Shown in pieces: positions 9,434 through 49,646 of a DNA stretch of 49,646 nucleotides (position 1 is the stretch's first letter; each line of letters begins with the position of its first letter). The notes beneath the pieces are model-generated. The model was given only the letters and a program-made list of their open reading frames with translations. It was not told where the DNA came from and did not search any database. This DNA comes from Selenomonadaceae bacterium (GTDB lineage Bacteria; Bacillota; Negativicutes; Selenomonadales; Selenomonadaceae): positions 1 through 49,646 of the forward strand of contig JAEEGN010000226.1 in assembly GCA_016280345.1 (NCBI GenBank), read 5' to 3'. The translations under genes were made by a program, and so were the position numbers.

Positions 9434-9578
9434 ACGATTATTCGCACCACCCGGAAAGGGAATAGGGGAGGGGGGCGTACCCCCGCGGTTAATTGTCATT
9501 ATATCACATCATCGACAATTGGAAAGAAAAACATGACGAAAAAAGGAAAATTTTCATAATTATTCCAATCGTAGTCAT

Positions 9579-13109: not shown

Positions 13110-13152
13110 AGATGAGCAGGGGGATACCCTGCGCAGAATCAGTCATTATTTG

Positions 13153-13191
13153 TGCGGTTACGGACAACCGCATGTACATTCAAGGAAAGGG
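13153..13191 (+). promoter_or_regulatory. Flagellin 5' leader: hairpin with GGA in the loop plus a GGA-containing Shine-Dalgarno (CsrA-type site pair)
   Basis: Stem TGCGGTT/AACCGCA (13153-13159 / 13166-13172) with loop ACGGAC. SD is AAGGAAAGGG at 13182-13191. The layout resembles the BS1/BS2 arrangement of the B. subtilis hag leader. Confidence 0.4.
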
Positions 13192-13200
13192 TGCATGAAC

Positions 13201-14550: not shown

Positions 14551-14569
14551 ATCTTTCGCAAACCAATCA

Positions 14570-14607
14570 AACCCCTTCCTGGCCTTTCACCGGAAGGGGT
14601 TTTCGTT
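14570..14607 (+). terminator. Intrinsic terminator of the flagellin gene
   Basis: 10-bp stem AACCCCTTCC / GGAAGGGGTT followed by TTTCGTT. Confidence 0.8.
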
Positions 14608-15030
14608 ATAATGCCATAAATCATATTTTCTCCGAAGGAGAAAAATCACTTTAGCCAGCATTTCAACAAGGCGTGCGGTCGGAGGGAGATTTAAACTCCC
14701 TCCGACCTCCGATATACACCCTCGCTTTTAGAGGCGGGGGACATCTCAGCCTTGTTATAAATTCGCCACGAATCATGACAGAAGATTTTTCACAGCGTAA
14801 TGGTCTTTGATATAAAAGTTCAAATAGTCAAACTATACATTTAATACGAGAGCCCAAAACATTGATATACCGGGATTTATCCGTTTTTTGTCCGGCTTAT
14901 TCCGGGTTTTTCTACTGAACAAAACGCTTGTCATACTGTCAAATAACAACCTGAATCCCTTGAATTTCGCCCATCGCAAATGTCTCATATTGCTCAAAGA
15001 AGAAAACTTAATCCCCCCTCCGGGAGGGGC

Positions 15031-24988: not shown

Positions 24989-25048
24989 CGACAGGAGCTT
25001 TGAGGAGTGAAAATAACCCTTTTCAAGGGATAAAAGGGAGAACCGAGG

Positions 25049-26704
25049 ATGAGGCTTTTCAGTTATCGAACGCTGGCGCAGGCTATCACGATGACGGTAT
25101 TGGCCGGGACGTTCGCGGGAACGGCTTTGGCGGCGACTTCGCTGCCGGAGCCGGGGGGCGAGGTGAAGGAACAGCTCCCGCAGCCCGGAGCGGAAGTGGA
25201 GAGCAATCTGCCGCCGCCGCCACCGGAGACGACGGAAACGAAGTTCACGGTAAAATCGGTTGACCTCATGGCGCCTGAGCTTAAAGTGAACAAGGAGGCG
25301 CTGACGAAGATTCTGGAGCCGGCGCTGAACCGCGAAGTGACGTTGGCGGAGTTTAACGAAATTATCGACCAGCTTACGGTATATTGCCGGCAGCACGGCT
25401 ATCCGGCGGCGGCGGCGTATCTGCCGGCGCAGGACAGCGTGAACGGCGCGGTGACGATCAATATCATTCCCGGCCGGTACGGGAAGGTCATCATCGAGAA
25501 CCACAGCAAATTGAAGGAAGATATCATCCAGGGGTTCCTGAACGGGCTGAAGCAGGGTTCGATCATTCGCACGAAGGGACTGGAGACGGCGCTCTACGAG
25601 ATCAGTGAGCTTTCCGGCACGAAGGCGGTGGGCGTACTGAGTCCGGGAGAGTCTTTCGGTTCCAGCGATCTGACGGTCCGGGTGGAGGACGGCAAGCTGT
25701 CGAATACGGTGCTCTATACGGAGAACTACGGCAGCCGGTCGTCGGGACGTTACCGTTACGGCCTTCAGGAAACGCTGTACAACGTCGGCGGGACCGGCGG
25801 CAAACTGAACGTGGGCGGACTGATTTCGAACAATCATCTGCACAATTACTATCTGAACTATGAGACGCTGATTGGCCGCAGCGGGGCTACGCTGGGGCTG
25901 GGCGTCAGCCGGATGGACTATGAGCTGGGCGGTGCGGCGCAGGAGTTTGGCGCCAACGGCGTAGCGAATACGCTGAGCCTGTTCGGCTCGACACCGCTCT
26001 ACCACATGACGGACCGCCGGCTGAAGGTGACTTACGGGCTGGATTTCCGGCGGATGAAAGACGATTATAGCAAGTATTCGATTCTCGACCGCAAGAAGCA
26101 TTCGGAGGTCGCCCACGTGGGCATCGAGGGTTCCGAGAAGCATCCGGGCTCGCTGCTGAACTACGACGCGACGCTCTATGTGGGGCGTCATCATAACGAT
26201 TCGTCGTCATATGGCGGCAAGATTCTGGACGATCTCAGCGATACGCAGGGAACGTTCACGAAGCTGGTGGCGGATGTGACCGGCGTACAATCGCTGGGGC
26301 ACCGCGCCGACGTGATGGTGAAGCTCCAGGGGCAGGCGGCAAGTCGTAATCTCGACAGTTCGGAGCAGATTTACCTGGGCGGCGCCAACGGCGTGCGGGC
26401 GTATCCGCAGGGCGAAGGCTCCGGTGACAAAGGCTTCCTGGGAACAGCGGAGTTCCGATTCTATACGAATCTGCCGGGCCTGGTGCTGAGCGCCTACCTC
26501 GATGCCGGCCATGTGGCGGGCCGCGGTGACGGAACGCTCAACGGCGAGACGCTGAAGGGCTGGGGCCTGGGAATCAGCTACTCGAAGCCGAACGACTGGT
26601 TCGCCCGCTTCGACTATGCCCGTCGCATCGGCAGCGATCCGAACATGAGCAGCGATGCCAGGAGCAAGCAGAGAATGTGGTTTATCCTGGGCAAGATTTG
26701 GTAA
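25049..26704 (+). CDS. TpsB outer-membrane transporter (ShlB/FhaC/HecB family, POTRA + Omp85-type barrel)
   Basis: Signal peptide MRLFSYRTLAQAITMTVLAGTFAGTALA. POTRA-like region (LTVYCRQHGYPAAAAYLPAQDSVNGAVTINIIPGRYG). DLTVRVEDGK...YTENYGSRSSGRYRYG, and a C-terminal barrel ending in an aromatic residue (...FILGKIW). Confidence 0.9.
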   Translation: MRLFSYRTLAQAITMTVLAGTFAGTALAATSLPEPGGEVKEQLPQPGAEVESNLPPPPPETTETKFTVKSVDLMAPELKVNKEALTKILEPALNREVTLAEFNEIIDQLTVYCRQHGYPAAAAYLPAQDSVNGAVTINIIPGRYGKVIIENHSKLKEDIIQGFLNGLKQGSIIRTKGLETALYEISELSGTKAVGVLSPGESFGSSDLTVRVEDGKLSNTVLYTENYGSRSSGRYRYGLQETLYNVGGTGGKLNVGGLISNNHLHNYYLNYETLIGRSGATLGLGVSRMDYELGGAAQEFGANGVANTLSLFGSTPLYHMTDRRLKVTYGLDFRRMKDDYSKYSILDRKKHSEVAHVGIEGSEKHPGSLLNYDATLYVGRHHNDSSSYGGKILDDLSDTQGTFTKLVADVTGVQSLGHRADVMVKLQGQAASRNLDSSEQIYLGGANGVRAYPQGEGSGDKGFLGTAEFRFYTNLPGLVLSAYLDAGHVAGRGDGTLNGETLKGWGLGISYSKPNDWFARFDYARRIGSDPNMSSDARSKQRMWFILGKIW

Positions 26705-36728: not shown

Positions 36729-37420
36729 TGGATATTTCAATGGTGAAGTTCGATGAAAAGGGATTGGTCCCCGCCATCATCCAGGAGGAAAACGGGCAGG
36801 TTCTCATGCTGGCTTACATGAACCGGGAATCTTTGGAAAAAACAATAGAGACCGGCTATACCTGGTTTTTCAGCCGCAGTCGACAACGACTCTGGAAAAA
36901 AGGCGAAACTTCCGGCAATACGCAAAAGGTAAAAGAGATACATTACGATTGCGACGGCGATACGCTCCTGGTGCGGGTCCATCAGACCGGCGTCGCCTGC
37001 CACACCGGTTCATATTCCTGCTTCAGTGGCCGGCGGCTGGGCGAGAATGAAAAGAGCGTGGCGGTCGTCAAGCCGGAACCGGAAAAATCTCTGGCGGTAC
37101 TGAACGAACTCTACGCTGTCATTCAGGACCGACGGCTGAATCCGGTGGAGGGCTCCTATACGAATTACCTGTTCGACAAAGGGCAGGATAAGATATTGAA
37201 GAAGGTGGGAGAGGAAGCGGCAGAGACGATCATCGCCTCAAAGAACATGAAGCGCGATGAGATTATCTACGAGATGAGCGATCTCTGGTATCACTGTCTG
37301 GTTCTTCTGGCCTTCCACAACGTCCTGCCGGACGCTCTGTTCAGCGAACTGATGAAGCGTCGCCAGGGCGGCTCCTATCACAAGTTCACCGGAAAGACCG
37401 GCGAACGTCCGGAGGACTGA
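36728..37420 (+). CDS. hisIE: Bifunctional phosphoribosyl-AMP cyclohydrolase / phosphoribosyl-ATP pyrophosphatase
   Basis: [51 protein letters not shown] (HisI), then [24 protein letters not shown]...[10 protein letters not shown] (HisE). Confidence 0.95.
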
Positions 37421-37422
37421 CC

Positions 37423-38160
37423 ATGAAAGATATGGATCTGCTGCGGGAGATGCTGACTTCGTCGGCCATGACGCCGGAGACGCCACGAGGGCAAGCGGCG
37501 CCTGTGCCACCGGAAAAACCCGTGCCACCGGACGCTACGCTCATTTCTTTGCCGGAGCCAGGGCTGTTGCCGGATATCCAGGTGAATTTCCTGGAAATGG
37601 TCGAACTTCGTGCCTCCATCCGCATTTACAGGGATAAAGCGGTTTCCCTCAAGGATTTGTCGTTTCTTCTCTGGTGTACGCAAGGTGTTAAAATGGCGAT
37701 GCCGTCCGGTGTGACCATGCGGAACGTCCCCTCGGCCGGGGCTTGCCACGCCTTCTCAACATATCTGCTGCTTCAGCGGATTGAGGGATTGACGCCGGGA
37801 CTTTACCGATTCCTGCCGCTGGAGCACGCCTTATATCCCGTACGTACCGGAGCGGAGGTCGTCACATCATTCCTGCCGGCCTTTCCCGCTACAGCCATGG
37901 TGGAGAAATGTGCTGCCGTCTTCCTTTGGTGCGCTGATTTCTCCCGAATGTCCGGCAAGTACGGTGCCCGGTCGCTGCGGTACCTCTTCCTCGATGCCGG
38001 TCATATCTGTCAGAATCTCTACCTCGCGGCCCAGGCCCTGCGGATCGGCGTTTGCGCTGTGGGCGCGTTCTATGACCAGGCGCTGAACAACGCTCTGGCA
38101 TTGGACGGGGAGAATGATTTTGTGGCCTATGCTGCTACAATCGGCTGGCCAGAGACCTGA
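37423..38160 (+). CDS. SagB/ThcOx-type nitroreductase-family (FMN) dehydrogenase
   Basis: LRASIRIYRDKAVSLKDLSFLLWCTQG, RNVPSAGACHAF, GLYRFLPLEHAL, LRYLFLDAGHICQNLYLAAQALRIGVCAVGAF. RBS GGAGGA sits 6 nt upstream. The start is 3 nt after the hisIE stop, so it is co-transcribed with the his operon. Confidence 0.75.
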   Translation: MKDMDLLREMLTSSAMTPETPRGQAAPVPPEKPVPPDATLISLPEPGLLPDIQVNFLEMVELRASIRIYRDKAVSLKDLSFLLWCTQGVKMAMPSGVTMRNVPSAGACHAFSTYLLLQRIEGLTPGLYRFLPLEHALYPVRTGAEVVTSFLPAFPATAMVEKCAAVFLWCADFSRMSGKYGARSLRYLFLDAGHICQNLYLAAQALRIGVCAVGAFYDQALNNALALDGENDFVAYAATIGWPET

Positions 38161-38229
38161 ACCGGTCAGCGAATAAATCCAAATCAGCGAGAAAAGCCAG
38201 TTTGCTCTCTTTCGGGCAGGCTGGTTTTT

Positions 38230-38502
38230 TCATTCATCCGGAAAGAACTCCTCCTCCCAAAGCCCATCAGTTAAGTATTTTTTGAGGAACAGCAGCAAAT
38301 CAACCGGTTTTAGCGAAGTATAACAAGAATAGTTCGTATTATGATAATGGATTTTTAGCATCCGGCCTGCGGCGGAAGAGGCGTACATAGAAATTCCCAC
38401 CGGGGTATCCGCTGACGAGATCATAATGACAAGCGGTACGGGGGCGTTGACGGAATGGGCGCATGTCGAAATCACAATCGACTCATGGAGAGAGGGGAAC
38501 AA
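38230..38502 (-). pseudogene. Possible C-terminal remnant of an alpha/beta-hydrolase-like gene
   Basis: The ORF tail APVPLVIMISSADTPVGISMYASSAAG...HYHNTNY...DLLLFLKKYL resembles the last strand-helix units of alpha/beta hydrolases (PvLii-G-x-D-x-vP ... H ... FL-kk). There is no plausible N-terminal domain, the segment is lower in GC, and it overlaps the next gene's leader. Confidence 0.25.
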
Positions 38503-38507
38503 ACGCC

Positions 38508-39461
38508 ATGAACGACAACTATTTCAATCAGGCGGCTCTCAACAAGATGCGTTCCCCGGAAAAACTCGATACGATGATCCGGATTACCGACCCGGTAAGC
38601 TGGATGGGTATGGCGTCTGTCACACTGCTCTGCTTCGCCATCGTACTTTGGTCGTTTTATGGTTCTTTTACGGAAAAAGCGGAAGGACGTGGCCTGATTC
38701 TGGATTCCGCCGGCGTCGTTAACGTGACGCATTCGGTCTCGGGAAAGATCACCGGAATTTTGGTTCATACGGGGGACAAGGTACATAAAGGACAGCTCAT
38801 CGCCCACATGGATCAGCCGGAACAATCGGCTGACACACGGATGGCGCAGTACGGAACGGAACTGGCAACGAATGACCGTGACGTAATGGGACGTGTTTAC
38901 CAGTACGACGCGAAGCGGCACCAGCAGGCGGCACGAGAGAATATTTACTGTGCGTATGACGGCGTAGTAGACGAGGTGATGGCTGCCGCCGGGGAAATTC
39001 TACAGGCAGGCAGTCCGATCTGTTCGGTGCGTTTAACGCAGAACCGTGATGATTTGACGGGCGTTTTCTATATTCCCGTGGATAAGGGCAAGCGCGTGGA
39101 ACCGGGGATGACAATCCAACTCGCCCCGAACGGTGTTGACGTAACGCAAACGGGCAGTTTGATCGGCGTAGTAAAAAGCGTGTCGCAATATCCGATTTCC
39201 GCCGAAGGCATACGAAAAGGGCTTGGCAACGCGCAACTTGCGCAATATGTGCTGACGCAGGACGGCGGTGCGGCGGTCGAGGTAAAATTCGACCTCGTGA
39301 AAGACGCCAGCTCGGATTCGGGCTACCTCTGGACCTCTGTCGTGGGGAAACATCGGCCGGTCACTGCGGGCAGTTTCTGCACCGGTTCCATCGTAATTGA
39401 GAGGGAACCGCCAATTGAGAAGGCATTCTATAAGATCAGCCAATGGCTGAGGAGCCGATAG
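38508..39461 (+). CDS. HlyD-family adaptor of an NHLP/Nif11-type bacteriocin export system
   Basis: MNDNYFNQAALNKMRSPEKLDTMIRITDPVSWMGMASVTLLCFAIVLW: the SPE-x-LD motif followed by a single TM helix is typical of this adaptor type. A biotinyl-lipoyl-like hairpin region follows (GKITGILVHTGDKVHKGQLIAHMD). ATG 38508 is preceded by GGAGAGAGGGG. Confidence 0.8.
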   Translation: MNDNYFNQAALNKMRSPEKLDTMIRITDPVSWMGMASVTLLCFAIVLWSFYGSFTEKAEGRGLILDSAGVVNVTHSVSGKITGILVHTGDKVHKGQLIAHMDQPEQSADTRMAQYGTELATNDRDVMGRVYQYDAKRHQQAARENIYCAYDGVVDEVMAAAGEILQAGSPICSVRLTQNRDDLTGVFYIPVDKGKRVEPGMTIQLAPNGVDVTQTGSLIGVVKSVSQYPISAEGIRKGLGNAQLAQYVLTQDGGAAVEVKFDLVKDASSDSGYLWTSVVGKHRPVTAGSFCTGSIVIEREPPIEKAFYKISQWLRSR

Positions 39462-39464
39462 CCT

Positions 39465-41684
39465 ATGGAATTCAAAGAAAAACTCCGGCAGTTCCTCTTC
39501 GGCCGGCAACGTGTGAAAACACCGACCGTCCTCCAGATGGAAGCGACGGAATGTGGAGCGGCTTCGCTTTCCATGGTGCTTGCCTATTACGGGAAATGGC
39601 TTCCCCTTGAGGTTTTGCGGCAGGAATGCGGCGTTACCCGTGATGGCGTGAACGCGAAGAACATTCTCCGCGCCGCGCGGCGGTTCGGCTGTGTAGCGAA
39701 AGGCTTTGCCGGTCGCCCCTACGTCCTTCGGGAGAAGGAATTTCCCCTGATTCTTTTTTGGGAGTTCAACCATTTCGTTGTCATGGAAGGAATCGAGGGT
39801 AACACGGTCTTTTTGAACGACCCGGCGTTGGGCCGGCGTAAGGTGACATGGGAGGACTTCCTCACTTCCTACACAGGTATCTATTTGAAAATCGTACCGG
39901 GAGAGGGATTCCGGCCTTCGGGACGGCAGTTCAGCGTCATGCAGGCGATGGTGGAAAAACTCGCCACCGATAAATGGGCAGTACTTTTCCTGGTAATCCT
40001 CGGACTTTGCATGATCATACCCGGGCTTGCCGTTCCGGTGATGAACCAGATCTTCATCGACGATGTCTTCTCGCTGAAGCATCCTGATTGGACCCAGAAA
40101 CTGCTATTCGCGATGGCTTCGGCGGCGGTGCTTGTCGGTGTCATGAGCGCGATGCGGGCTGCGGCACTGACCTATTGGAAGAGGAAACTGACGTTGTCGG
40201 ACTCTTCGTCGTTCTTCTGGCATGTTCTGCGTCTGCCCGTGGCTTTTTTCCAACAGCGGTACGCGGCAGATGTGGCTTCCCGTATCCAGTTCAACGAGGC
40301 GAATGCCGAAGTACTTTCCAACCAAGGAGCTACCGCCGTTCTCGACCTTTTCATCGCGCTGTTCTACCTCGGTCTCCTGATTCAGTACAGCGTTCCGCTG
40401 ACGCTGGTTGGCGTCTCTGTCAGCGTCGTCAACCTCTTGGTGCTTCTCTATATGCGGCGGAATATGACCGACCTCACAATGCGGATTCAGCAGGAAAAAG
40501 GCAAGGAATTTGGCGTCCTGATGGCTGGCATCATGATGATTGAAAGCATCAAAGCGACCGGCAGCGAGGACGAGCTTTTCGCAAAATGGGCCGGTTACTC
40601 CGGGAAAGTAATTGTTGCGAATCAGGAAATGCAGATTTGGTCGCTGAAAGTTCGACTCCTGCCTACGCTTTTGGCAGGTCTTTCGGGGGCGTTGGTCATG
40701 ACAGTAGGCGGCTTTTCCATCATGGAAGGAGCGATGACCGCCGGTGTCTATACGGCGGTGAACAGCCTGATCGAGAAGTTCCATGAACCGATGCAAAAGC
40801 TCTTGACTTTCAGCGATACGATCCGAACGGCAGAAATGCAGATGCAGCGCCTTGACGACGTGCGGCAATATAAAACAGACATCCTGAACTATCCCGATGA
40901 GACACAAACAATCACATTTAAAGGTGACCGCTTATCCGGCGAGATAACCATGAAAGATGTAAACTTCGGCTACAGTCCATTGGAACCGCCGCTCCTGGAG
41001 AATTTCCAACTCCATCTGGAGCCGGGGCGCTGGGCCGCCATCGTGGGCGCGTCGGGCAGTGGAAAATCGACGCTGGCAAAGCTCGTTGCCGGATTTTATG
41101 AGGAATGGTCGGGAGAAATTCTCTTCGATGGTGTGAAACGGCGTGAAATCCCCCGCCCGGTTATCGTCAATTCACTGGCCTCGGTAGATCAGGACGTTTT
41201 CCAAATCTCCGGGACGGTGCGAGAAAACATCTCGCTGTTCGACAGCTCCGTGCCAAAGGATGACATTATGCAGGCAGCGCAGGACGCCTGCATCGAAGAC
41301 GATATCCTGCGGCTCCCTGGCGGCTATGAAGCAGTGGTCTCTGAGGGCGGGCTGAATTTCAGCGGCGGCCAAAGGCAGCGGTTGGAGCTAGCCCGGGCAC
41401 TGGCAGGCAATCCATCCATCCTGATCCTCGACGAAGCGACCAGTGCCATTGACCCGATGACGGAACAGAAGTGCCTCGAAAACCTGCGACGGCGCGGTTG
41501 TACCTGCCTGTTTGTCGCTCATCGTCTGTCAACCATCCGCGACGCGGATGAAATCATCGTCCTGGAAAAAGGTAAGGTGGCAGAACGTGGCACGCATCGC
41601 GAACTGATGCAGAATAACGGCCCTTACTGCAGGTTGATTGAGGAAAACATGAACGAGGAAAAGGGTGACGAATCGCTGGATTAA
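39465..41684 (+). CDS. ABC transporter with N-terminal C39 double-glycine peptidase domain (peptidase/permease/ATPase)
   Basis: C39 catalytic residues in context: VLQMEATECGAASLSMVL, EFNHFVVMEG, FLNDPA. Six-TM ABC exporter domain. Walker A GASGSGKST, FSGGQRQR, ILILDEATSA. Confidence 0.9.
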   Translation: MEFKEKLRQFLFGRQRVKTPTVLQMEATECGAASLSMVLAYYGKWLPLEVLRQECGVTRDGVNAKNILRAARRFGCVAKGFAGRPYVLREKEFPLILFWEFNHFVVMEGIEGNTVFLNDPALGRRKVTWEDFLTSYTGIYLKIVPGEGFRPSGRQFSVMQAMVEKLATDKWAVLFLVILGLCMIIPGLAVPVMNQIFIDDVFSLKHPDWTQKLLFAMASAAVLVGVMSAMRAAALTYWKRKLTLSDSSSFFWHVLRLPVAFFQQRYAADVASRIQFNEANAEVLSNQGATAVLDLFIALFYLGLLIQYSVPLTLVGVSVSVVNLLVLLYMRRNMTDLTMRIQQEKGKEFGVLMAGIMMIESIKATGSEDELFAKWAGYSGKVIVANQEMQIWSLKVRLLPTLLAGLSGALVMTVGGFSIMEGAMTAGVYTAVNSLIEKFHEPMQKLLTFSDTIRTAEMQMQRLDDVRQYKTDILNYPDETQTITFKGDRLSGEITMKDVNFGYSPLEPPLLENFQLHLEPGRWAAIVGASGSGKSTLAKLVAGFYEEWSGEILFDGVKRREIPRPVIVNSLASVDQDVFQISGTVRENISLFDSSVPKDDIMQAAQDACIEDDILRLPGGYEAVVSEGGLNFSGGQRQRLELARALAGNPSILILDEATSAIDPMTEQKCLENLRRRGCTCLFVAHRLSTIRDADEIIVLEKGKVAERGTHRELMQNNGPYCRLIEENMNEEKGDESLD

Positions 41685-41812
41685 CGGCTCTTTACGCCGC
41701 CGGCGCAAAACCAAGATATATTTTTTCATCTCCCGGTTTCAATTCTTGAATCCGGGAGTGGTATTCGAATGCGGTTCCGTTTTTCCGCCACGACAGGAAG
41801 GAAGGACGCGCT

Positions 41813-44566
41813 ATGAAGCTTGCTGCCGGGGAACGGTTCCGGCTACCGGACGATAAAACATATATCAAAATTGTGGCGGGCCAGGCGGAAGCCTATGCGG
41901 TCACGAGGCAAAAAATCTCTTACCGCCAGATATTCTTGAAGGAATTGCCGGTCGGGGAAGCAGCTTTTCCGCCGATGGACGAATTTGATCAGATCGATAT
42001 CCTGGTTTACGCTGTCGAGGATTCCGAGATTGAGCTACAATCGCTTGCTGAAGCGGATCCCGTCATTCTGGCGCCGCTCATGAAGCAGTGGTTCGGGCGG
42101 CTTGTCGCTCTGCCATGGCTCAGCCTTTTAGCTGATCGTGGCGACGATGTGCTGAAGACATGGGCGGACGGTTCTGTCCTGAACAGCCGGGAGACGGACC
42201 TGGCGACGTTGCTGAATGCGTTTGCGGAGAATGAAGGCATTTTCGCTATGTTACTCGGCGTGCGATTCTCGTCGCAGGACAAGCGTCTCTCAACACGTAT
42301 GGAAAGTCGCGCCCGGCAACAAAGCCGTCTTGTGGACGAAACCATCGCAGCATTGCTGGAAGAAAAGGACGCCATAGAAGGCAGTTTTTCCGCGATGGGT
42401 GATGAAGCAGGCACTGGAAGCAAACGGGCCGAAGAGGCCGCGTTTCTCACACGCTGTGTCGCACAGGCTTTGAATATGCCGTTCCGGAATCTGCACATCA
42501 CAACGGATATGGCGAAAAAACATAATTCCCTCGCTTTGCTTCGGCGCTTTGTCCAGAAGTGCGGCATGCAGCTTCGGTCTGTCACCCTCGATCCGGGTTG
42601 GCAGACCGGAGATAGCGGCGTCATGCTTGGCTCCTTCATCGCCGACGACAATGAGAAAGAACTGGCCGCGCTGATACCCGATTCGCCAAAACACTATCGT
42701 CTCGTAACGCAATCGTATCCCGAGGGCATCCCACTCACGGACGAAGTCGCCGCGAGAATCGACCGGGAGGCGTTTCTCTGCTATCCGGGCCTTCCTGCGC
42801 GAAAGCTCTCGCTGGGGGATCTCCTTCGTTTCTTTTTCCGGCAAAGCTGGACGACGGATTGGAAAACAATCGCCATCGCCAGTTTCGTCACGGGATTGAT
42901 TCCGCTGATTACGCCCATTGTCACCGAGACGGTCTTCAAGGACATCATCCCGATCCTTGACCGGAAGGGTCTTGCCACTGTCACGCAAGTCATGATGGTG
43001 GCGGGTTTTACCACGGCAGCGCTAACCACCACGCGATCAGTTGCGTTCCTGCGCCTGTCCTCGGCGTGCGGAAAAACGCTACAGGCCGCTTTGATCATCC
43101 GTCTCTTTTCCCTGCCGGCGAAATTCTTCCGCCGCTTCCAGTCTGGCGACCTTGCCAACCGCTTGATGGGCTTCGAGGCGATCACGCTCCTCCTGTCGGA
43201 GAATGTCTTCGGGGGCATCTTCAACCTGGTGTTTTCCTTCTGGAGTCTCGGGCTGATGCTTTATTACAGCTTGAAGCTTACAGCAACGGCGCTGGGGATA
43301 TGGCTCATTTACCTCATTATCAGCGGCTTCATCATCAGCCGCCTTGTCCGCTCCCAACGGAAAATGACCGAGGCGAAAAACAAGACCGCCGGTATTTTGC
43401 AGCAGATTTTCACAGGACTTCAGAAATTCCGTGTAAAGGGAGCGGAGGAACAGGCCTACCATCTTTGGGGGGAAAAGTTCGCCGAGGAATGGAGATGGAA
43501 TTTCAGCGTTCGCTGGCTCACGAACTATAATACCGTCATCACCGCCGTCCAGCCGATCCTGCTGGCGCTGGCGCTATACTACGTCGGACTGAAGGAGCTT
43601 GCCGAAAACCCGGCAACGGGCGAAGCCGCAACGATACTCTCAGAAACGTTCAGCCCGGCGGAGCCTCTGACAGTCGCTAAATTCATCGCGTTCCAGGCGG
43701 CATACTCCGCATTCAACGTGTCCCTGAACGCCGTCATGCCAATCTTGGAACAGTTTGCCGCCGTCCGGCCGCTGTTCGAGAATCTTCAGCCTATCCTCGA
43801 CACGGAGCCGGAAGCCGCTGAAGAAAAAAAAGAAGCCGGCTTGCTCTCCGGGACAATTGAGGCAAGGCATCTGACCTTTTCCTATGGTGAGGGATTGCCG
43901 GAGGTGCTGCATGACGTGAGCTTCCGCGTAGCGGCGGGAGAGCATCTGGCCATTGTCGGACCGTCCGGCTGCGGCAAATCCACGCTTGTGCGGTTACTCC
44001 TCGGCTTTGAATCGCCGGCCAGTGGTGCCGTCTATTACGACGGGCAGGACCTGGCCGACCTCGACCTTCCCTCCGTGCGCTCTCAGATGGGCGTGGTGTT
44101 GCAAAACGGCCAACTGATGACCGGAGACATCTATCGGAATATCGCCGGGACCAGCGACCTGACGCTGGACGATGCCTGGGCGGCAGCGGAAGCGGCTGGC
44201 GTCGCCAACGACATCCGCGAAATGCCAATGCAGATGCAGACGGTCATCAGCGAAGGCAGCACGAACATTTCCGGTGGTCAGCGGCAGCGCATCCTGATTG
44301 CCAGAGCGCTTGCCATGAAGCCCTCTATCATCATCTGTGACGAGGCGACCAGCGCCCTGGACAACCGTACCCAATCCATCGTAACCGCCAGTCTCGACCA
44401 GCTGAAAGTGACACGTGTTGTCATTGCACACCGTCTCTCGACCATCCGTCACGCTGACCGCATTCTTGTCCTCAATGAAGGCCGTATCGAAGAGATTGGA
44501 ACGTTTGACGAACTGATCGCGAAGGATGGTCTCTTCGCATCGTTTGTCAAACGGCAAGTAGCGTAG
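41813..44566 (+). CDS. Second ABC exporter (permease/ATPase) with a non-peptidase N-terminal extension (cNMP-binding-like)
   Basis: 917 aa. N-terminal roughly 150 aa: RFRLPDDKTYIKIVAGQAEAYAV...IDILVYAVEDSEIE. A central segment aligned to the position of a C39 domain lacks the catalytic Cys context. TM domain, GPSGCGKST, ISGGQRQR, IIICDEATSA. Confidence 0.85.
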   Translation: MKLAAGERFRLPDDKTYIKIVAGQAEAYAVTRQKISYRQIFLKELPVGEAAFPPMDEFDQIDILVYAVEDSEIELQSLAEADPVILAPLMKQWFGRLVALPWLSLLADRGDDVLKTWADGSVLNSRETDLATLLNAFAENEGIFAMLLGVRFSSQDKRLSTRMESRARQQSRLVDETIAALLEEKDAIEGSFSAMGDEAGTGSKRAEEAAFLTRCVAQALNMPFRNLHITTDMAKKHNSLALLRRFVQKCGMQLRSVTLDPGWQTGDSGVMLGSFIADDNEKELAALIPDSPKHYRLVTQSYPEGIPLTDEVAARIDREAFLCYPGLPARKLSLGDLLRFFFRQSWTTDWKTIAIASFVTGLIPLITPIVTETVFKDIIPILDRKGLATVTQVMMVAGFTTAALTTTRSVAFLRLSSACGKTLQAALIIRLFSLPAKFFRRFQSGDLANRLMGFEAITLLLSENVFGGIFNLVFSFWSLGLMLYYSLKLTATALGIWLIYLIISGFIISRLVRSQRKMTEAKNKTAGILQQIFTGLQKFRVKGAEEQAYHLWGEKFAEEWRWNFSVRWLTNYNTVITAVQPILLALALYYVGLKELAENPATGEAATILSETFSPAEPLTVAKFIAFQAAYSAFNVSLNAVMPILEQFAAVRPLFENLQPILDTEPEAAEEKKEAGLLSGTIEARHLTFSYGEGLPEVLHDVSFRVAAGEHLAIVGPSGCGKSTLVRLLLGFESPASGAVYYDGQDLADLDLPSVRSQMGVVLQNGQLMTGDIYRNIAGTSDLTLDDAWAAAEAAGVANDIREMPMQMQTVISEGSTNISGGQRQRILIARALAMKPSIIICDEATSALDNRTQSIVTASLDQLKVTRVVIAHRLSTIRHADRILVLNEGRIEEIGTFDELIAKDGLFASFVKRQVA

Positions 44567-44620
44567 TCAGCGAATCGCGAAGCCACGTAAAACCAATTCT
44601 GCCCGAAAGGCGATGGTACG

Positions 44621-45139
44621 ATGTCCCCCGCGACTATTTCCTGTCCGTTGGATTTCGAGTCGATCTACCGGAAGTATCATAAAAGGGTTTACAACTATAT
44701 TTACGGGCAGATTCTGCAACGCGAGGCGGCCGAGGACCTGGCGGCGGATGTGTTCGTCGCGGTGGCGACGAATCTGGGACGCTTCGACCCAACGCGGGGA
44801 TCGTTTTCTATATGGCTTTTTACCATTGCCAGGAATTTGACGCAAAATTATCGCCTGCGAGCCTCAAACCGGCTGGAGGAAACTCGCGAGGAACTGCCCG
44901 AACGTTTTGCCGATCCTCCGAAAGAGCAGGACGAGTCCTTGCGCATTCCCGAGAATGCACGGACAGAGCGTATTTTAACCCAGCTTTCCAACGAGGAACG
45001 GAGTTTTTTGGAGTATCGCTATGTGCTTGATCTTTCCAACGAAGAGATAGGGCGGCTCATTGGGACGTCGGCAGCCACTGTCAGCCAGCGTTATCATCGT
45101 CTGCTGGCGAAGTGCCGGAAAATTGATCGGAACGAATGA
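44621..45139 (+). CDS. Sigma-70 family (ECF-like) RNA polymerase sigma factor
   Basis: Region 2 (IYRKYHKRVYNYIYGQILQREAAEDLAADVFVAV, FSIWLFTIARNLTQNY) and region 4 HTH (LSNEERSFLEYRYVLDLSNEEIGRLIGTSAATVSQRYHRLLAKCR). Confidence 0.85.
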   Translation: MSPATISCPLDFESIYRKYHKRVYNYIYGQILQREAAEDLAADVFVAVATNLGRFDPTRGSFSIWLFTIARNLTQNYRLRASNRLEETREELPERFADPPKEQDESLRIPENARTERILTQLSNEERSFLEYRYVLDLSNEEIGRLIGTSAATVSQRYHRLLAKCRKIDRNE

Positions 45140-45252
45140 CATACGACGCGCCGAGTAAATATCTTGAAGTTTTTTCACTACCCGTCAATTTTTGGAGTGG
45201 TGAATTGTATTATATAGATAAGAACAGATAGGGCGGAAACGAGGCGATATGA

Positions 45253-45546
45253 ATGGCGGACAAGATTGTGGGCAGTGAAAATGATATGACGCGCATCGAG
45301 GAGATGGACATGCTTTTTCGCTCAGCGGATTTCTCCGCTGAAAGCGCCGGTCTTGCCGAGAGGCTTTGGGTAAAAATACGGTCGCGGCTGACAGCACGGA
45401 GACAGGACTTCGTGTCTCCCGCGGAAGAATTCGAGCTTTCCGAGGTCGATCTTTTTGAGGTTGCAGCGGCCGGCTCGCCGGACGAACAGCTCCAGAAATG
45501 TCTGGATCGTAGCCAATACCCGACACTCAGTGGCAGTGGTGTATGA
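45253..45546 (+). CDS. 97-aa acidic hypothetical protein (soluble anti-sigma-like or leader-peptide-like)
   Basis: GAGG lies 8 nt upstream of ATG 45253. It occupies the position usually held by an anti-sigma factor, but has no TM helix and no zinc-finger motif. It contains ...EEFELSEVDLFEVAAAGSPDEQLQKC... Confidence 0.5.
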   Translation: MADKIVGSENDMTRIEEMDMLFRSADFSAESAGLAERLWVKIRSRLTARRQDFVSPAEEFELSEVDLFEVAAAGSPDEQLQKCLDRSQYPTLSGSGV

Positions 45547-45981
45547 GACCTTCGCTATTCCGAAAGACGAGACGCGCATAACTTCATGAATGATGGCCAC
45601 AGCTTTCTGAATGAGTGTTCTCATCAGGAAAAATTGCTATGCGGTTGACGGCTGTGCGATAAAGTGCGGTTCGATGGACTGAACAGAGTTATAATTGGGA
45701 ATACTTGGTCAGATGTAAAACGACGTTCCCGGATATCCAGAAACGTGTGAAGACAGAAAAAAGTGGTATGAATATCTTAATCATCAATATTTGACAAGGT
45801 GGCGAATGGCAGGTGCCATTCCGAGTGCAGCTGGGATAAATGGATACCACTTTAAGGATACGTTGAGCCAGTCCCCACGAAAGAATTGAATCCGTTATGA
45901 AGCGCGGGGATTCCAAGAAAACCATGGCCGGCTGGTTTGCCATAACGATTAACGAAAGCAAAACGACAAAGGAGAGAAAAC

Positions 45982-47598
45982 ATGAGAATCAGCACCTATG
46001 AGATCATCCTGCCGCTGATCGGCCAGGAGGACAAAAAGATTGAGGGGAAAACGCTGCTGGTGAACGGCCTGTATGGCGCGTTGGACGTGGTGGACACGAA
46101 GATAGCTGAAAAGCTCGAAAAGGAAGACTTCGCGGGCATCCCCTTTTCGCTGCGGGAGCGGCTCACGGTGCGCGGCCATATCACGCGAAAGGACGAGGCG
46201 GGCGAGCTGGCAGACGCGCGCCTTATAGGCCGCGTCTGGAACAAGCTGGTGGGCCACGCCGGTACCGGCCCGGTCATCCTGCCTACCTACAACTGCAATT
46301 TCCGTTGCCCGTACTGCTTTGAGCGCCATCGGCTTACCCGCGGACAAGAATGGCTCGGTCATGAGATGAAGCCGGAGATGGTGGAGGCGGTCTTTGCCGC
46401 ACTCCAAAAGCAGAAGGACAAAGGTCATAAGATCGACAACGTCTCGCTCTACGGCGGCGAACCGCTCTTGAAGGAAAACAAGGAGACGGTCAGGAATATC
46501 TGCGAGCATGCAAAGGCGATGGGGCTCGGCCTTTCCGGCATCACCAACGGCTACGACTTAGACTCGTATGTTGATCTTCTGAAAGAATTTGAGTTCTCCC
46601 AGTTGCAAATCACGGTGGACGGCGTGGGCGTGCTGAATGATCGTCGCCGCCTGCATCGGGACGGCGTGCCGACTTACGACAAGATTCTGCAAAACGCGAA
46701 ACTGGCCCTCGACCACGGCGTCGACGTGAACCTCAGGGTGAACACGAACGGTGAGAACATCGGCGGCGTCAAGGCATTGATTGACGATTTGGCAGCCCGG
46801 GGACTTCGTGAAGCCACGCAGGAAGAACGGGATAAAGCGTATCAGGAAGAGCAGGAAGCGAAGAAGGCAGGAAAGCCGAAACCGGAGCGCAAAGGCTTTT
46901 TCAGCTATTATTTCAAAGCAGTGTCGGAGGATGCCGATTCACCGACCAAGGTGACGGAGCGGCAGGTACTGGACGCGTTGCTCGCGGCGGGTATTCCGCC
47001 GTTGGAGGCCATCGGGAAGCAAAGCCAGTATTCGATTCCCATGCAGGGGCTTTCAGCCGCCATGAAGAAAGATGACTATCCGAGCTTTTCCCCGGCTTTC
47101 TGCGGCGCGGAGCAGGGCATGTTGTGCATCGCCCCCGACGGACAGCTCTTTTCCTGTTGGGACCTCGTGGCGAAGGACGAGGACGCCGTGGGCTTCACCG
47201 ACAAAGAGGCGGGCCGGTTCTTCTTCAATTTTACGAAAGCGAAATGGCGTACTCGCACCTCGGACCTGATGAAGCCCTGCCAGACCTGCCCGTACATTTT
47301 CATCTGCCGGGGTGGCTGCGCGCCGGAGGCGTATCGGACGCATGGCAGCTACTTTCGCGAAAACTGCGGCGAGGCAAAGGAGATTTTCGCATATGTCGCC
47401 CCCCGCGTTGTCGGAAAAAAGTGGGAGGCGACAAAGGAGGACGAGCTTTCCATCTCACTGACGGGGCCGTTGGCGAGGTTCACGGAAAAGGAACGTGAGA
47501 CGCTGATGAGAACTACAAGCCAGCAGGAAATGTTCGGTATTATCAAGCAAGCGGGCTTTTTTTTCTCAGAAACAAGCGAGGAAAAGAAGGACGCATAA
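45982..47598 (+). CDS. Radical SAM / SPASM-domain peptide maturase
   Basis: CX3CX2C at PTYNCNFRCPYCFE. SAM-binding GGEPLL. SPASM Cys pattern FCGAEQGMLCIAPDGQLFSC ... CQTCPYIFICRGGCAPEA (CX2CX5CX3C). A roughly 100-aa pre-domain sits where RRE-type leader-binding domains occur. Confidence 0.9.
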   Translation: MRISTYEIILPLIGQEDKKIEGKTLLVNGLYGALDVVDTKIAEKLEKEDFAGIPFSLRERLTVRGHITRKDEAGELADARLIGRVWNKLVGHAGTGPVILPTYNCNFRCPYCFERHRLTRGQEWLGHEMKPEMVEAVFAALQKQKDKGHKIDNVSLYGGEPLLKENKETVRNICEHAKAMGLGLSGITNGYDLDSYVDLLKEFEFSQLQITVDGVGVLNDRRRLHRDGVPTYDKILQNAKLALDHGVDVNLRVNTNGENIGGVKALIDDLAARGLREATQEERDKAYQEEQEAKKAGKPKPERKGFFSYYFKAVSEDADSPTKVTERQVLDALLAAGIPPLEAIGKQSQYSIPMQGLSAAMKKDDYPSFSPAFCGAEQGMLCIAPDGQLFSCWDLVAKDEDAVGFTDKEAGRFFFNFTKAKWRTRTSDLMKPCQTCPYIFICRGGCAPEAYRTHGSYFRENCGEAKEIFAYVAPRVVGKKWEATKEDELSISLTGPLARFTEKERETLMRTTSQQEMFGIIKQAGFFFSETSEEKKDA

Positions 47599-47679
47599 AT
47601 GCCTTTTGCCGTGAGGTCTTATGTATGGCAGTCCAGTCCCGAGGGCTGCCCTAAACACACGATGGACAACTGCTCATAA
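47599..47679 (+). pseudogene. 26-codon ORF resembling a truncated core peptide (MPFAVRSYVWQSSPEGCPKHTMDNCS)
   Basis: It starts on the nucleotide after the rSAM stop and in the same frame. SYVWQSSPEGCPKH resembles VYWSNCPGEGTCGHH of the intact precursor. No leader is present. Confidence 0.35.
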
Positions 47680-47700
47680 TAAATAGGGGATGTTTTATTT

Positions 47701-47823
47701 TTGGCAGACAAACTCAAAGGAAAAAACATCTCGAAGGAACAGCTCGAGAAAGCGATCAAGTGCAAAACCGCCGACAAACTGTTGCGGCGGCGAAATCCGA
47801 GGTTTTTCGATCTGACGAAGTAA
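47701..47823 (+). pseudogene. Nif11-like N-terminal leader half, separated from the downstream precursor ORF by an in-frame TAA
   Basis: A TTG-initiated frame reads LADKLKGKNISKEQLEKAIKCKTADKLLRRRNPRFFDLTK*, in the same frame as ATG 47839. An alternative frame over 47784-47805 reads VAAAKSEVF, suggesting compensating frameshifts. Confidence 0.4.
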
Positions 47824-47838
47824 GAAGCTGAGGCGTGC

Positions 47839-47985
47839 ATGGCGGAGCTGGCAGACTTCAAGCTGGATGATGAGATGCTGAATAAAGCGGCCGGGGGCGT
47901 TTACTGGTCAAATTGCCCGGGTGAGGGAACCTGCGGCCACCACGTCTGCGGAATTGTAGGCTGGGAGAACTTCAAGGGATGCTGA
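47839..47985 (+). CDS. 48-aa RiPP precursor peptide with a double-glycine leader and a 4-Cys core
   Basis: MAELADFKLDDEMLNKAAGG | VYWSNCPGEGTCGHHVCGIVGWENFKGC. SD TGAGG sits 5 nt upstream. It lies 240 nt downstream of the rSAM/SPASM gene and in a locus with a C39-peptidase exporter. It is below the 60-aa cutoff of the ORF track. Confidence 0.7.
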   Translation: MAELADFKLDDEMLNKAAGGVYWSNCPGEGTCGHHVCGIVGWENFKGC

Positions 47986-48127
47986 TCCGTAGAAAGGTTT
48001 TATCTATAGCAACAAGTTACAAGGAAGCGTTCACGAAAGAACAACGCAAAGATCGCCAATGAGTTTCCGGCATTGGCAAAGTCTGATATAAAAGCCGCCT
48101 GTTGGTTTATCCCATAGCGGCTATTAT

Positions 48128-48301
48128 ATGCAGAAATTCCTGAAGCGAATATCTTGGGTGTACATGGCTGAGCTCAATGGCTTCGAACTGGATGACGAAG
48201 TGATTTAGGCTTTGACGGACGGCATGAAGACCCGATATATTGTGGATGGTTGCTCCTTCAAGTGCGGTACATTAGAGAACTTGTTGACGAATCATGGCTG
48301 A
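48128..48301 (+). pseudogene. Second precursor paralogue interrupted by an in-frame TAG
   Basis: MQKFLKRISWVYMAELNGFELDDEVI*ALTDGMKTRYIVDGCSFKCGTLENLLTNHG*. MAELNGFELDDEV parallels MAELADFKLDDEM. The stop is at 48206-48208, and the GG motif is replaced by DG. Confidence 0.45.
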
Positions 48302-48311
48302 ACGGAAAAAT

Positions 48312-48340
48312 AAGGTAAGATTATCTTACCTTATTTTTCT
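48312..48340 (+). terminator. Intrinsic terminator closing the precursor region
   Basis: AAGGTAAGA-tta-TCTTACCTT followed by ATTTTTCT. Confidence 0.8.
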
Positions 48341-48517
48341 TATTATAGCAGTTTCGAAACGCAGGAAACGCCATCATGAGACGAACGAGAGGAAAGCGTA
48401 AGTACGGAGTGAAATGGCATAATTGCTTGCCGCCGCTCTGCAGCGTCGTTCTATTCCACTGTAAGGCTATAATGAAATCGCCTCTGTCAAAGCGGAAAAC
48501 AAGGAAAGGGAACTGCC

Positions 48518-49646
48518 ATGCGAAAAGAGTTTCTTGTCGTTAACGAAGCGAATTTTAATGAATCGGCGGACCGGATTCGCGAGGCGCTGGTGGAACGAAG
48601 GGTTACTGAACGGGAAATCAGCTGGGCATCGCTGCTCTTTGAGGAGATTTTTTACCGCGCACGGGGCATGGGTGTAGAAGAAATGCGCGTGGTCATCCAG
48701 AACCGTCTCGGGGATTTAAGCCTGCAGCTTTCCTTTGACGGCGAGGAGAAAAATCCCCTCATGGATGTCGCTGCTTTAGACGAGAACGACATAGAAACAT
48801 ACCGCACGCTGATTTTGAAGGCGAACAGAGACAAGCTTAGCTATGAGCGCTGGAATGGGGAGAATCTTGTACTCGTTGCCGTCCATCGTTCGGAGCGAAA
48901 GCAGATTTTCTATTTGCTGGCGGCGATGGTGCTTGGTATCATGTTCGGCGAACTGATGAAAGCGTTCGCTTCCCCCGAGACCTTGCAATTCTTCGACGAG
49001 GCTGTAGTCAAGAGTGTCCGCACAATTTTCTTGAACGCTCTGAGCTTAATGATTGCGCCGGTGGTTTTTTTCAGCATCATCAACGGTGTCACGAGCATGA
49101 GAGACGTTGCCGAGGTGGGACGGATTGGCGGCAAATTGATCGGTCTTTATTTGTTTACGACCGTCATCGCTGCCGTTGCCAGTATCGCTCTCGGGTACGC
49201 GCTCTTCAGCGGGGAAATCCCGCAAATCGGCTCCATCGATGAGACAGCGAGGGGCGCGGCACCAAACGTTTCCTTTCTGGCGATGATTGTCGGCGTTGTG
49301 CCGAAAAATTTCATCGATCCTATTCTCAAGGGAGATATGCTACAAATCATTTTTATCGCATTGATCTGCGGCATCTGCATTACGAAACTGGGAAAATCTG
49401 TTCAAATTCTTGTTCAAATCATTGCAGCGCTTAACACGCTTTTCTTGCACGTGGTAACAATGATTGCCTTTTTCATCCCGCTGATTGCCTTCCTGTCCAT
49501 GGTTTCCCTGATTATTCATATGGGCTTCGATTCGTTGCAGTTCATGGGACGGATGCTCTTGGGGCAAATCATCGGCAGCCTCTTAATGCTGATAGTCTAC
49601 AGCGGAATCATCCGCTTCGTCGGCGGATTGTCGCCCCTTCCGTTTC
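48518..49646 (+). CDS. Dicarboxylate/amino acid:cation symporter (DAACS) family transporter with a roughly 125-aa N-terminal cytoplasmic extension (3' end outside the window)
   Basis: Not in the ORF track because it runs off the window. ATG 48518 follows AAGGAAAGGG. The frame is open to 49646. DAACS motifs are present (VRTIFLNALSLMIAPVVFFSIINGVTSM, GRIGGKLIGLYLFTTVIAA, VVPKNFIDPILKGDMLQIIFIALICGI). Confidence 0.8.
   Translation, partial: MRKEFLVVNEANFNESADRIREALVERRVTEREISWASLLFEEIFYRARGMGVEEMRVVIQNRLGDLSLQLSFDGEEKNPLMDVAALDENDIETYRTLILKANRDKLSYERWNGENLVLVAVHRSERKQIFYLLAAMVLGIMFGELMKAFASPETLQFFDEAVVKSVRTIFLNALSLMIAPVVFFSIINGVTSMRDVAEVGRIGGKLIGLYLFTTVIAAVASIALGYALFSGEIPQIGSIDETARGAAPNVSFLAMIVGVVPKNFIDPILKGDMLQIIFIALICGICITKLGKSVQILVQIIAALNTLFLHVVTMIAFFIPLIAFLSMVSLIIHMGFDSLQFMGRMLLGQIIGSLLMLIVYSGIIRFVGGLSPLPF

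Follow-up and report, generated by a model that had tools for sequence, protein, structure and literature searches.

A probable radical SAM peptide cluster with an NHLP/Nif11-class exporter, a sigma factor-peptide pair and decayed precursor genes in a Selenomonadaceae bacterium

The window analysed here is the whole stretch of 49,646 nucleotides from a Selenomonadaceae bacterium (contig JAEEGN010000226.1), and its subject is the gene cluster at positions 38508-48340. We are fairly confident that this locus is a real production-and-export cluster for a ribosomally synthesised and post-translationally modified peptide (RiPP), of which the precursor set is degenerate in this genome. The cluster type is widespread in rumen bacteria and uncharacterised, and its exporter class is already known. 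The interest lies in the family that was revealed and in its module of a sigma factor and a small peptide, more than in the decayed copy of the window.

When the open reading frames (ORFs) of 36-49.6 kb were listed, six co-directional genes were found on the + strand at 38508-48340. The order is HlyD, ABC1 with a C39 peptidase, ABC2, a sigma factor of the extracytoplasmic function (ECF) type, a 97-aa ORF, a radical S-adenosylmethionine (SAM)/SPASM enzyme, precursor relics and a terminator. All the genes listed in a preliminary description of the sequence were present on the + strand at the positions it gave. The genes and signals were as follows; bit scores are given with the model cut-offs, and ABC stands for ATP-binding cassette and RRE for RiPP recognition element.

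38508-39461, + strand: HlyD-type membrane-fusion adaptor (TIGR03794, 241.2 bits, cut-off 156.2)
39465-41684, + strand: ABC1, ABC transporter of 739 aa with an N-terminal C39 double-glycine peptidase (TIGR03796, 962.6, cut-off 853.3)
41813-44566, + strand: ABC2, peptidase-less ABC transporter of 917 aa (TIGR03797, 743.9, cut-off 709.4, aligned from residue 214)
44621-45139, + strand: ECF-like sigma factor with regions 2 and 4 only (TIGR02937, 93.6, cut-off 42.9; Sigma70_r2 and r4_2)
45183-45214, + strand: promoter-like motif CGTCAATTTT-N12-TTGTATTATA, conserved and cluster-specific
45253-45546, + strand: ORF97, 97 aa, member of an unannotated sigma-associated peptide family (no Pfam or NCBIfam match)
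45982-47598, + strand: putative peptide maturase of 538 aa with an RRE-like N-domain, a radical SAM core and a SPASM domain (PF04055, 76.2, cut-off 29.5)
48304-48340, + strand: intrinsic terminator hairpin with a 17-bp stem and a 3-nt loop, followed by a U-rich tail

The transport genes match the NHLP/Nif11 export class

The exporter was tested with the three models that the preliminary description had named for an export trio of nitrile hydratase-like (NHLP) and Nif11-like leader peptides. TIGR03794, TIGR03796 and TIGR03797 were all passed above their curated equivalog cut-offs by three contiguous genes (38508-44566). By these matches we assign the transport genes to the NHLP/Nif11 class of exporters. 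The C39 peptidase that had been noticed in ABC1 gave 110 bits with Pfam Peptidase_C39, and ABC_membrane and ABC_tran were matched as well. The 917-aa ABC2 had been described with a non-peptidase extension; the TIGR03797 alignment started only at residue 214, and residues 1-213 (41813-42450) matched no Pfam or NCBIfam model. This N-terminal extension is kept in the relatives, where the proteins have 898-930 aa, and its first ~90 residues look by eye like a small beta-barrel.

The HlyD ORF opens at 38463. In the relatives the protein begins at the equivalent methionine of MNDN.../MSNDN..., and 38508 is the likely start as judged from this comparison. An RSPEKLD motif followed by a hydrophobic stretch was read from the sequence alone.

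Related maturase genes are flanked by intact Nif11-like precursor genes

A scan with one genome per species identified ten loci with a maturase of 70-85% identity. Their hosts are rumen and gut Negativicutes (Selenomonadaceae, Schwartzia and Succiniclasticum ruminis DSM 9236) and one metagenome-assembled genome labelled Lachnospiraceae. In the relatives, of which the loci are given L numbers here, intact precursor genes of 70-95 aa, one to nine per locus, stand beside the maturase gene. The gene order HlyD-ABC1-ABC2-sigma-ORF97 family-(radical SAM and precursors) was found in L001, L002, L008, L014-L017 and L019. The search for the same order in related genomes, which had been proposed before, thus showed that it recurs with adjacent radical SAM and Nif11-like precursor genes. 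Some related genomes divide the components of the cluster between loci, for example L011.

The intact precursors share the leader M..I.NELTKEMIEKAMQCKTADEL.ALAK.EG.ELTK.EAEAYMAELADFELD...L..AGG, and all their leaders end with AGG. The model of the Nif11-like leader (TIGR03798) gave 21.9-31.2 bits at a cut-off of 32.3, one intact precursor passed the Pfam Nif11 model (PF07862, 26.1 bits, cut-off 23.8), and NCBI and JGI label several close homologues as 'Nif11-like leader peptide family RiPP precursor'. With a profile of ten leaders at least 6866 homologous proteins were found.

The cores are hypervariable and contain cysteines, as in VCWTNCPKEAECPGHVCGTVGWENFKGC, VKTCYMVDGCAFKCGTLKDC, ICYMEDCPKHTMAD, SCYTECPLDGPM, IFECYMRHNCGYIGDDWK and GPHKCWTY. 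Among the 120 best matches there were 84 distinct cores, of which 43 have C-[Y/W] within the first few residues, and in 33 of these 43 a second cysteine follows 2-5 residues later. Precursors of the P0053 type have only (D/E)ELxxxAAGG in common with the Nif11-type leaders, but their core is type-2-like. This is a large and unstudied radical SAM RiPP family of rumen Negativicutes, suited both to work on combinatorial peptide chemistry and to studies of the microbial ecology of the rumen.

A protein of 226-234 aa was also observed in relatives (L001 8608-9312, L005 8567-9271, L008 5616-6296 and L011 12139-12843) and is absent from the window. It joins a Nif11-like leader with a GG site to a short Cys-rich segment and a Hint domain (Pfam Hint, 31.9 bits). 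This domain, of the intein/hedgehog type, is an odd cargo for a RiPP leader.

The precursor genes of the window are relics

DNA alignment and tblastn revealed five precursor relics in the window, of which a single one is still open (47839-47985). The decaying precursor array that had been suspected at the end of the cluster is therefore real, and larger than it had appeared. The relics were located at these positions, the type-1 gene being given in two parts.

45611-45682, + strand: leaderless type-2-like core relic MSVLIRKNCYAVDGCAIKCGSMD, no Shine-Dalgarno sequence
45793-45855, + strand: 3'-end relic of another precursor, DKVANGRCHSECSWDKWIPL and a stop in the frame translation
47641-47679, + strand: tentative type-5 core relic EGCPKHTMDNCS and a stop, compared with ICYMEDCPKHTMAD in L001, L003 and L008
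47701-47838, + strand: disabled Nif11-like leader part of a type-1 precursor, orthologue of the L003 type-1 gene
47839-47985, + strand: 3' part of the type-1 gene and only open precursor ORF, 48 aa, MAELADFKLDDEMLNKAAGG then VYWSNCPGEGTCGHHVCGIVGWENFKGC
47990-48301, + strand: type-2 precursor pseudogene, aligned at the DNA level with its intact counterparts in L003, L004 and L009

In the type-1 relic the ATG start is gone, an in-frame TAA is present at 47821-47823, and compensating indels put eight codons out of frame, which read RRRNPRFF (AAKSEV in the shifted frame). With the intact L003 orthologue, tblastn aligned 47716-47982 across the stop (E = 5e-34). The repaired gene of the window scored 21.2 bits with TIGR03798, at the cut-off of 32.3.

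The 48-aa ORF starts at an internal ATG (47839) with GAGG 5 nt upstream and encodes a leader stub of 20 aa with the double glycine, followed by a core of 28 aa with four cysteines, and no Nif11 domain. The register of the stub, ...L(-12)DDEM L(-7)NK A(-4)AGG, is that of double-glycine (C39) leaders, which have GG, GA or GS at -2/-1 and hydrophobic residues near -4, -7 and -12. The core opens with VYWSNC, compared with VCWTNC in L003 and VCWKNC in P0200. Since both orthologues have a cysteine at the second position, the conserved first motif cysteine is, as judged from the alignment, lost to tyrosine in the window. The preliminary description had proposed the 47839-47985 peptide as the substrate to be coexpressed with the maturase. 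Its reading frame is indeed open, but the peptide is not an intact substrate, being truncated and deprived of the Nif11 leader part and of the first core cysteine. We regard it as a damaged substrate.

It could be argued that the locus is fully functional with the 48-aa peptide as its product, that a leader of 20 aa is enough for the maturase and for C39 cleavage and export, and that the other copies are spent duplicates. For this speak the open frame with its GAGG and its four retained cysteines, the C-terminal segment HVCGxVGWENFKGC, which differs from L003 mostly synonymously, and the purifying selection on the maturase and the exporters described below. Recognition may moreover sit in the (D/E)ELxxxAAGG segment, which P0053-type precursors share with the Nif11-type leaders. 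However, the first cysteine of the C[YW] motif is replaced and the 46 codons upstream are clearly the disabled leader of the same gene. In the intact orthologue the GAGG lies within coding sequence and therefore did not evolve as a ribosome-binding site, and the truncated form was seen in no other genome compared. We consider a functional 48-aa product possible, though rather unlikely, and prefer the reading that the precursor set is degenerate.

In the type-2 pseudogene ~40 nt are inserted in the leader, the start codon is missing and a TAG lies in frame; the GG is changed to DG and the first core cysteine to arginine, and 4 nt are inserted at the 3' end. tblastn aligned 48161-48280 across the stop with E = 7e-15. 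The core relic at 45611-45682 is 69% identical to the type-2 core KTCYMVDGCAFKCGTL (tblastn, E = 3e-5), and in L001 and L008 the ORF97 homologue is likewise followed by an equivalent relic out of frame. Programmed recoding of this out-of-frame core was set aside, since the core has no Shine-Dalgarno sequence, a slippery site was not seen, and the relics are not the same from one genome to another. The remaining two relics gave weak matches. That at 45793-45855 looks like the cores GCYSKCNRDNWIPL and GCGDCYSECSRDNWNPL of P0097-P0101 (tblastn, E = 0.28), and that at 47641-47679 shares an identity of six residues only (E = 0.045).

Broken Nif11 leaders with in-frame stops or frameshifts, together with an intact GG and IFECYMRHNCGYIGDDWK cores, were also observed in L010 (~9560-9780), L004 (~60-320) and L005 (~9700-9960). 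The loss of the N-terminal leader with retention of the GG-proximal part and the core may be a repeated pattern and not a one-off of the window.

The maturase lies outside the named families

The 538-aa protein contains CNFRCPYC (CX3CX2C) and a GX4C ... CX2CX5CX3C auxiliary-cluster motif, both read from the sequence. Its SPASM region was matched by TIGR04085 (50.9 bits, cut-off 27) and not by the SPASM model of Pfam. The best named family was CefB (NF038107), the 'Cys-every-fifth' maturase, with 127.6 bits at a cut-off of 600. TIGR04463 gave 105.5 (cut-off 525), Clo7bot TIGR04334 103.8 (600), the ranthipeptide maturase PapB NF047865 85.7 (340), the cyanobacterial nif11 maturase TIGR04064 60.2 (518.7) and SCIFF TIGR03974 55.1 (425). 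The best sequence match in the PDB was CteB (5wgg, E = 2.9e-12).

The N-terminal residues 1-100 were modelled with AlphaFold2 (AF2) as three strands followed by helices, with a predicted local distance difference test score (pLDDT) of 89. The top Foldseek match of this domain was TbiB1 with its leader (probability 0.91, E = 0.015, template modelling (TM) score ~0.33), a weak match, as none reached E <= 0.001. CteB, a lasso B1 protein and LynD were further weak matches. In our reading, the maturase is an RRE-radical SAM-SPASM crosslinking enzyme of an uncharacterised subfamily. In sactipeptides the cysteine sulfur is linked to an alpha carbon, and in ranthipeptides to the beta or gamma carbon of the acceptor residue. 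By analogy, thioethers at cysteines are the most likely predicted chemistry.

When the N-terminal 100 residues of the maturase were used as a query, only truncated metagenomic homologues were returned. There are many such homologues, P0309-P0311 among them; in some the N-terminal ~78 residues run straight into the C-terminal tail and the whole catalytic core is missing, and one core-deleted form sits on contigs of up to 85 kb. Because truncated and internally deleted maturase copies occur in related metagenomes, the decay of the system is not unique to the source genome. The cluster family has been caught in gene decay, with precursor relics here and maturase pseudogenes elsewhere.

The synonymous divergence (dS) to L001-L003 is ~0.53-0.58 for the maturase and ~1.3-1.5 for ABC1, ABC2 and the sigma factor. 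The smaller value suggests a more recent exchange by recombination for the maturase segment than for the exporter module. In several relatives the type-2 precursor is followed by another radical SAM enzyme, of ~640 aa and with a hit to a B12-binding domain: L005 (11993-13915), L006 (10330-12246), L009 (12040-13977) and L011 (15589-17514). The window has no such enzyme, which implies a further modification in the relatives that is lacking in the window. In L014 the second SPASM enzyme is a different one (13297-15027), and a VanY gene is present.

A sigma factor, a promoter-like motif and a small peptide form a conserved module

Orthologues of the sigma factor with 41-72% identity hold the same position in the related loci. 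Downstream of the sigma gene, the motif CGTCAATTTT-N12-TTGTATTATA has one exact match in the window, where 0.01 would be expected by chance. With the same spacing it was found upstream of the ORF97-family gene in 15 of the 15 earlier loci that carry one, and, exactly or with CGTAT-type variants of the -10 element, in ~9 of 12 newly found sigma-orthologue loci. In the other three (L027, L031 and L034) the upstream region is missing or has no motif. In some loci the motif is also present upstream of a Nif11 precursor. We infer that 45183-45214 is a candidate target promoter of the cluster sigma factor. The conserved exporter-sigma-peptide module and its promoter make it possible to propose, and to test, how the expression of such clusters is turned on.

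ORF97 consists of an N-module (EMDxLFRxADF...RLWxKI), a leader-like segment (ELSxxxLxEVAAAG) and a variable tail of 23 aa. In the family consensus the N-module is (E)MDxLFRxADFxxExxxLxxRLWxxI, followed by an ERELxxxELxxLAAAG segment and a hypervariable tail of 5-25 residues. A word-indexed profile search gave 105 homologues, small and unannotated, and a HMMER search of 1.84 billion representatives gave 84 clusters at 50% identity, nearly all of 50-130 aa. No transmembrane segment and no known domain were found in these 84 remote clusters. ORF97 homologues directly follow the sigma gene in L001, L002 and L008, and the order HlyD-ABC1-ABC2-sigma-ORF97 family is present in L014-L017, L019 and L020.

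The specificity of this adjacency was seen in a metagenome scan with the sigma profile, in which loci with a sigma factor of at least 43% identity to that of the window were taken as orthologue loci and the other 67 had more distant ECF sigmas. An ORF97-family gene stood immediately downstream of sigma in 12 of the 13 orthologue loci and in none of the 67 others. The pair had been described as a sigma factor with an acidic partner: the adjacency proved to be specific, whereas ORF97 could not be recognised as an anti-sigma factor, since neither Pfam nor NCBIfam detected an anti-sigma domain such as zf-HC2 or one of the RsiW type. By this adjacency, ORF97 would be a dedicated partner of the cluster sigma factor. 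It may be an anti-sigma factor, possibly cleaved or exported off, a pheromone pro-peptide or an extended-leader precursor.

The five-gene module HlyD-ABC1-ABC2-sigma-ORF97 could serve mainly for signalling or regulation. ORF97 would then be the substrate of the exporter, as a pheromone pro-peptide or an export-coupled anti-sigma factor, and the radical SAM enzyme and the precursors would be interchangeable cargo that is being lost. Besides the tie between the ORF97 family and the sigma orthologue, two loci are in line with this. In L020, a distant locus, two complete sets of membrane-fusion protein HlyD, ABC1 and ABC2 flank the sigma gene and a family member, ORF88, a gene for a TolC-like outer-membrane efflux protein comes last, and no radical SAM gene was found within 8 kb. 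At 485-1514 of L021, a sigma gene is followed by genes for a 116-aa protein with a GG-type leader (…EELDEIAGG), a 63-aa family member (ORF63), a STAS protein and a MatE exporter, which places ORF63 between the sigma factor and the STAS protein. The latter is of the anti-sigma-antagonist type. The conserved N-part and the hypervariable tail after ELxxxELxxLAAAG also fit an exported pro-peptide, as the hydrophobic register of double-glycine leaders is obtained, although only if cleavage follows the invariant Ala-Ala of AAAG. Modelled alone with AF2, ORF97 was helical and poorly ordered, at low confidence (pLDDT 67, predicted TM score 0.27).

On the other side, the ORF97 motif ends with AAA-G/R and not with GG, and cleavage there would strand the conserved N-module in the cytoplasm. 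Some members have maturase-type Cys cores or full Nif11 leaders: the tail of P0053 is a maturase-type core, GG-IEFRYGVDSCVMKCGMIK, and several independent members carry the N-module in fusion with an entire Nif11 leader and core, so the family may be one of extended-leader precursors. In addition, the peptide gene of L005 and L018 has no sigma gene next to it. A mainly signalling module is thus a tentative proposal that we hold to be somewhat improbable, and a cluster that makes and exports a modified peptide is preferred.

A more specific role is still less certain and is put forward as a speculation that we think unlikely. ORF97 could be a leader-like, FlgM-sized inhibitor of the cluster sigma factor, and C39 cleavage with export by the neighbouring transporter would either remove this inhibitor or generate it. 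If this were true, transcription of the peptide operon would be coupled directly to the precursor load or to the activity of the exporter. The precursor itself would then be the anti-sigma factor in lineages where the N-module is fused to a full Nif11 precursor.

The large genes are under constraint and the peptide output is doubtful

Pairwise comparison of the window with its relatives gave dN/dS values of 0.16-0.18 for the maturase, 0.09 for ABC1, 0.12-0.14 for ABC2 and 0.15 for the sigma factor. These values do not exceed those among relatives with intact precursors; for most of the divergence, selection has therefore constrained the enzyme and the exporters.

In the proposed model, the sigma factor would drive the promoter at 45183-45214. 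The maturase would bind the leader through its N-terminal RRE-like domain and introduce radical-mediated crosslinks at the core cysteines, most likely sacti- or ranthi-type thioethers. The C39 domain of ABC1 would cut after GG, and ABC1, ABC2 and HlyD would then export the product across both membranes. A peptide output from the locus of the window alone is doubtful, because there are five relics and the only open one has a 20-aa leader stub and lacks the motif cysteine. The intact enzyme and exporters may act on the truncated peptide, on the ORF97 peptide or on precursors that are encoded at other sites of the genome. A very recent decay may be a further explanation for the intact large genes.

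That the whole locus is a dead remnant, which makes no product and of which the large genes have not yet decayed, is quite unlikely. In favour of it, five of five precursor copies carry damage, several accessory genes of the relatives are missing (FAD oxidoreductase, phosphoesterase, PTP-like phytase, Hint protein and B12-radical SAM enzyme) and decayed maturase versions are common in related metagenomes. Against it, neither frameshifts nor stops were found in the five large or regulatory genes, which make up ~8 kb of coding sequence, and dN/dS in these genes (0.09-0.18) does not exceed that among precursor-intact relatives; all curated equivalog cut-offs of the exporter were also passed.

Several points weigh against a RiPP cluster with a degenerate precursor set. 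The maturase scored far under the cut-off of every named maturase family scanned and the fold matches of its RRE-like domain were weak (best E = 0.015, TM 0.33). The sigma dependence of the promoter is a prediction from its position and conservation. The window is apparently the whole 49.6-kb contig, and the survey of the precursors was confined to it. The in-frame stops could in principle be assembly errors; sequencing error was rejected as an unlikely cause, since each relic has several independent lesions and ~8 kb of neighbouring coding sequence is intact.

Comparison with known systems

The NHLP/Nif11 export system has been linked to cyclodehydratases for thiazole/oxazole-modified microcins (TOMMs) and to LanM enzymes, and neither radical SAM enzymes nor sigma factors were mentioned (Haft, Basu and Mitchell 2010, PMC2887384). 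The cluster resembles this system in the adjacent trio above the cut-offs, in the Nif11-like precursors with a GG site and in the HlyD-type adaptor, which fits a diderm host. It differs in the radical SAM/SPASM partner, in the pair of sigma factor and small peptide after ABC2 and in the ~210-aa extension of ABC2.

With CteB/SCIFF, PapB and CefB the maturase shares the order of a putative RRE-like, a radical SAM and a SPASM part, the CX3CX2C and SPASM cysteine motifs and Cys-rich putative substrates. It stays far below the cut-offs of these families, has a ~100-aa insert between the core and SPASM and is associated with a different leader type. The TIGR04064 nif11 maturases also combine a radical SAM enzyme with Nif11-leader peptides, but the enzyme of the window is not a member (60.2 bits, cut-off 518.7).

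In prochlorosin systems one promiscuous enzyme, ProcM, acts on many Nif11-leader precursors with hypervariable cores. Conserved Nif11-like leaders, several paralogous precursors with hypervariable cores per locus and C39-ABC export are found in both cases, and the precursors can be encoded away from the enzyme. In contrast, the family described here has a radical SAM/SPASM enzyme in place of LanM, Cys-rich C-[Y/W] cores and anaerobic rumen Negativicutes as hosts.

For the regulatory pair, MibX/MibW is an ECF sigma/anti-sigma pair in the microbisporicin lantibiotic cluster, and FlgM/sigma-28 is an example of export-coupled control. As with MibX/MibW, an ECF-like sigma factor lies inside a RiPP cluster with a small partner gene immediately downstream, and ORF97 is similar in size to FlgM and has a poorly ordered predicted structure. 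Unlike these proteins, ORF97 has no known anti-sigma domain or transmembrane segment and carries a leader-like, double-glycine-like motif and a variable tail. In the literature searched, no description was found of a system that combines Nif11-like leaders, an RRE-radical SAM-SPASM enzyme outside the named families and a module of a sigma factor and a leader-like peptide with its promoter.

Borders of the cluster and neighbouring genes

The cluster is flanked by the end of a histidine operon on one side and by a DctA/GltP-type transporter on the other. The hairpin at 48304-48340, noted earlier as a clean terminator, folds strongly (dG -22.8 kcal/mol, z = -6.62, none of 200 shuffles folding as well) and marks the end of the unit. 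Rfam gave no match across 37000-49646.

The family scans with Pfam and NCBIfam covered the cluster genes and the other large ORFs of the window, the ORFs of the his operon (~29.8-37.4 kb) being assigned by inspection. Neither LanM nor a YcaO/cyclodehydratase was matched in the scanned genes, as the preliminary description had anticipated. A gene for a SagB-family peptide dehydrogenase was found at 37423-38160 on the + strand (TIGR03605, 130.6 bits, cut-off 78.4). It begins 2 nt past hisIE, is separated from the cluster by a terminator-like hairpin and has no counterpart in the related loci. A TOMM or linear azol(in)e reading was rejected, since a SagB-like gene is present but no YcaO was matched in the scanned genes, and a lanthipeptide reading was rejected as no LanM was matched in them.

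The host belongs among diderm Firmicutes of the type found in rumen Selenomonadales, and the window offers as context a two-partner secretion system of the ShlB type, flagellin and the his operon. The secretion pair lies at 16226-26704 on the + strand and consists of a 2920-aa protein with six YDG-domain repeats and a ShlB/FhaC-type transporter with POTRA; it is consistent with a diderm host. At 984-4349 (+ strand) a 1121-aa protein with four Glyco_transf_41 (OGT-like) matches is encoded, a few kb from the flagellin gene at 13150-14550 (+ strand), and this protein may be a flagellin glycosylation enzyme.

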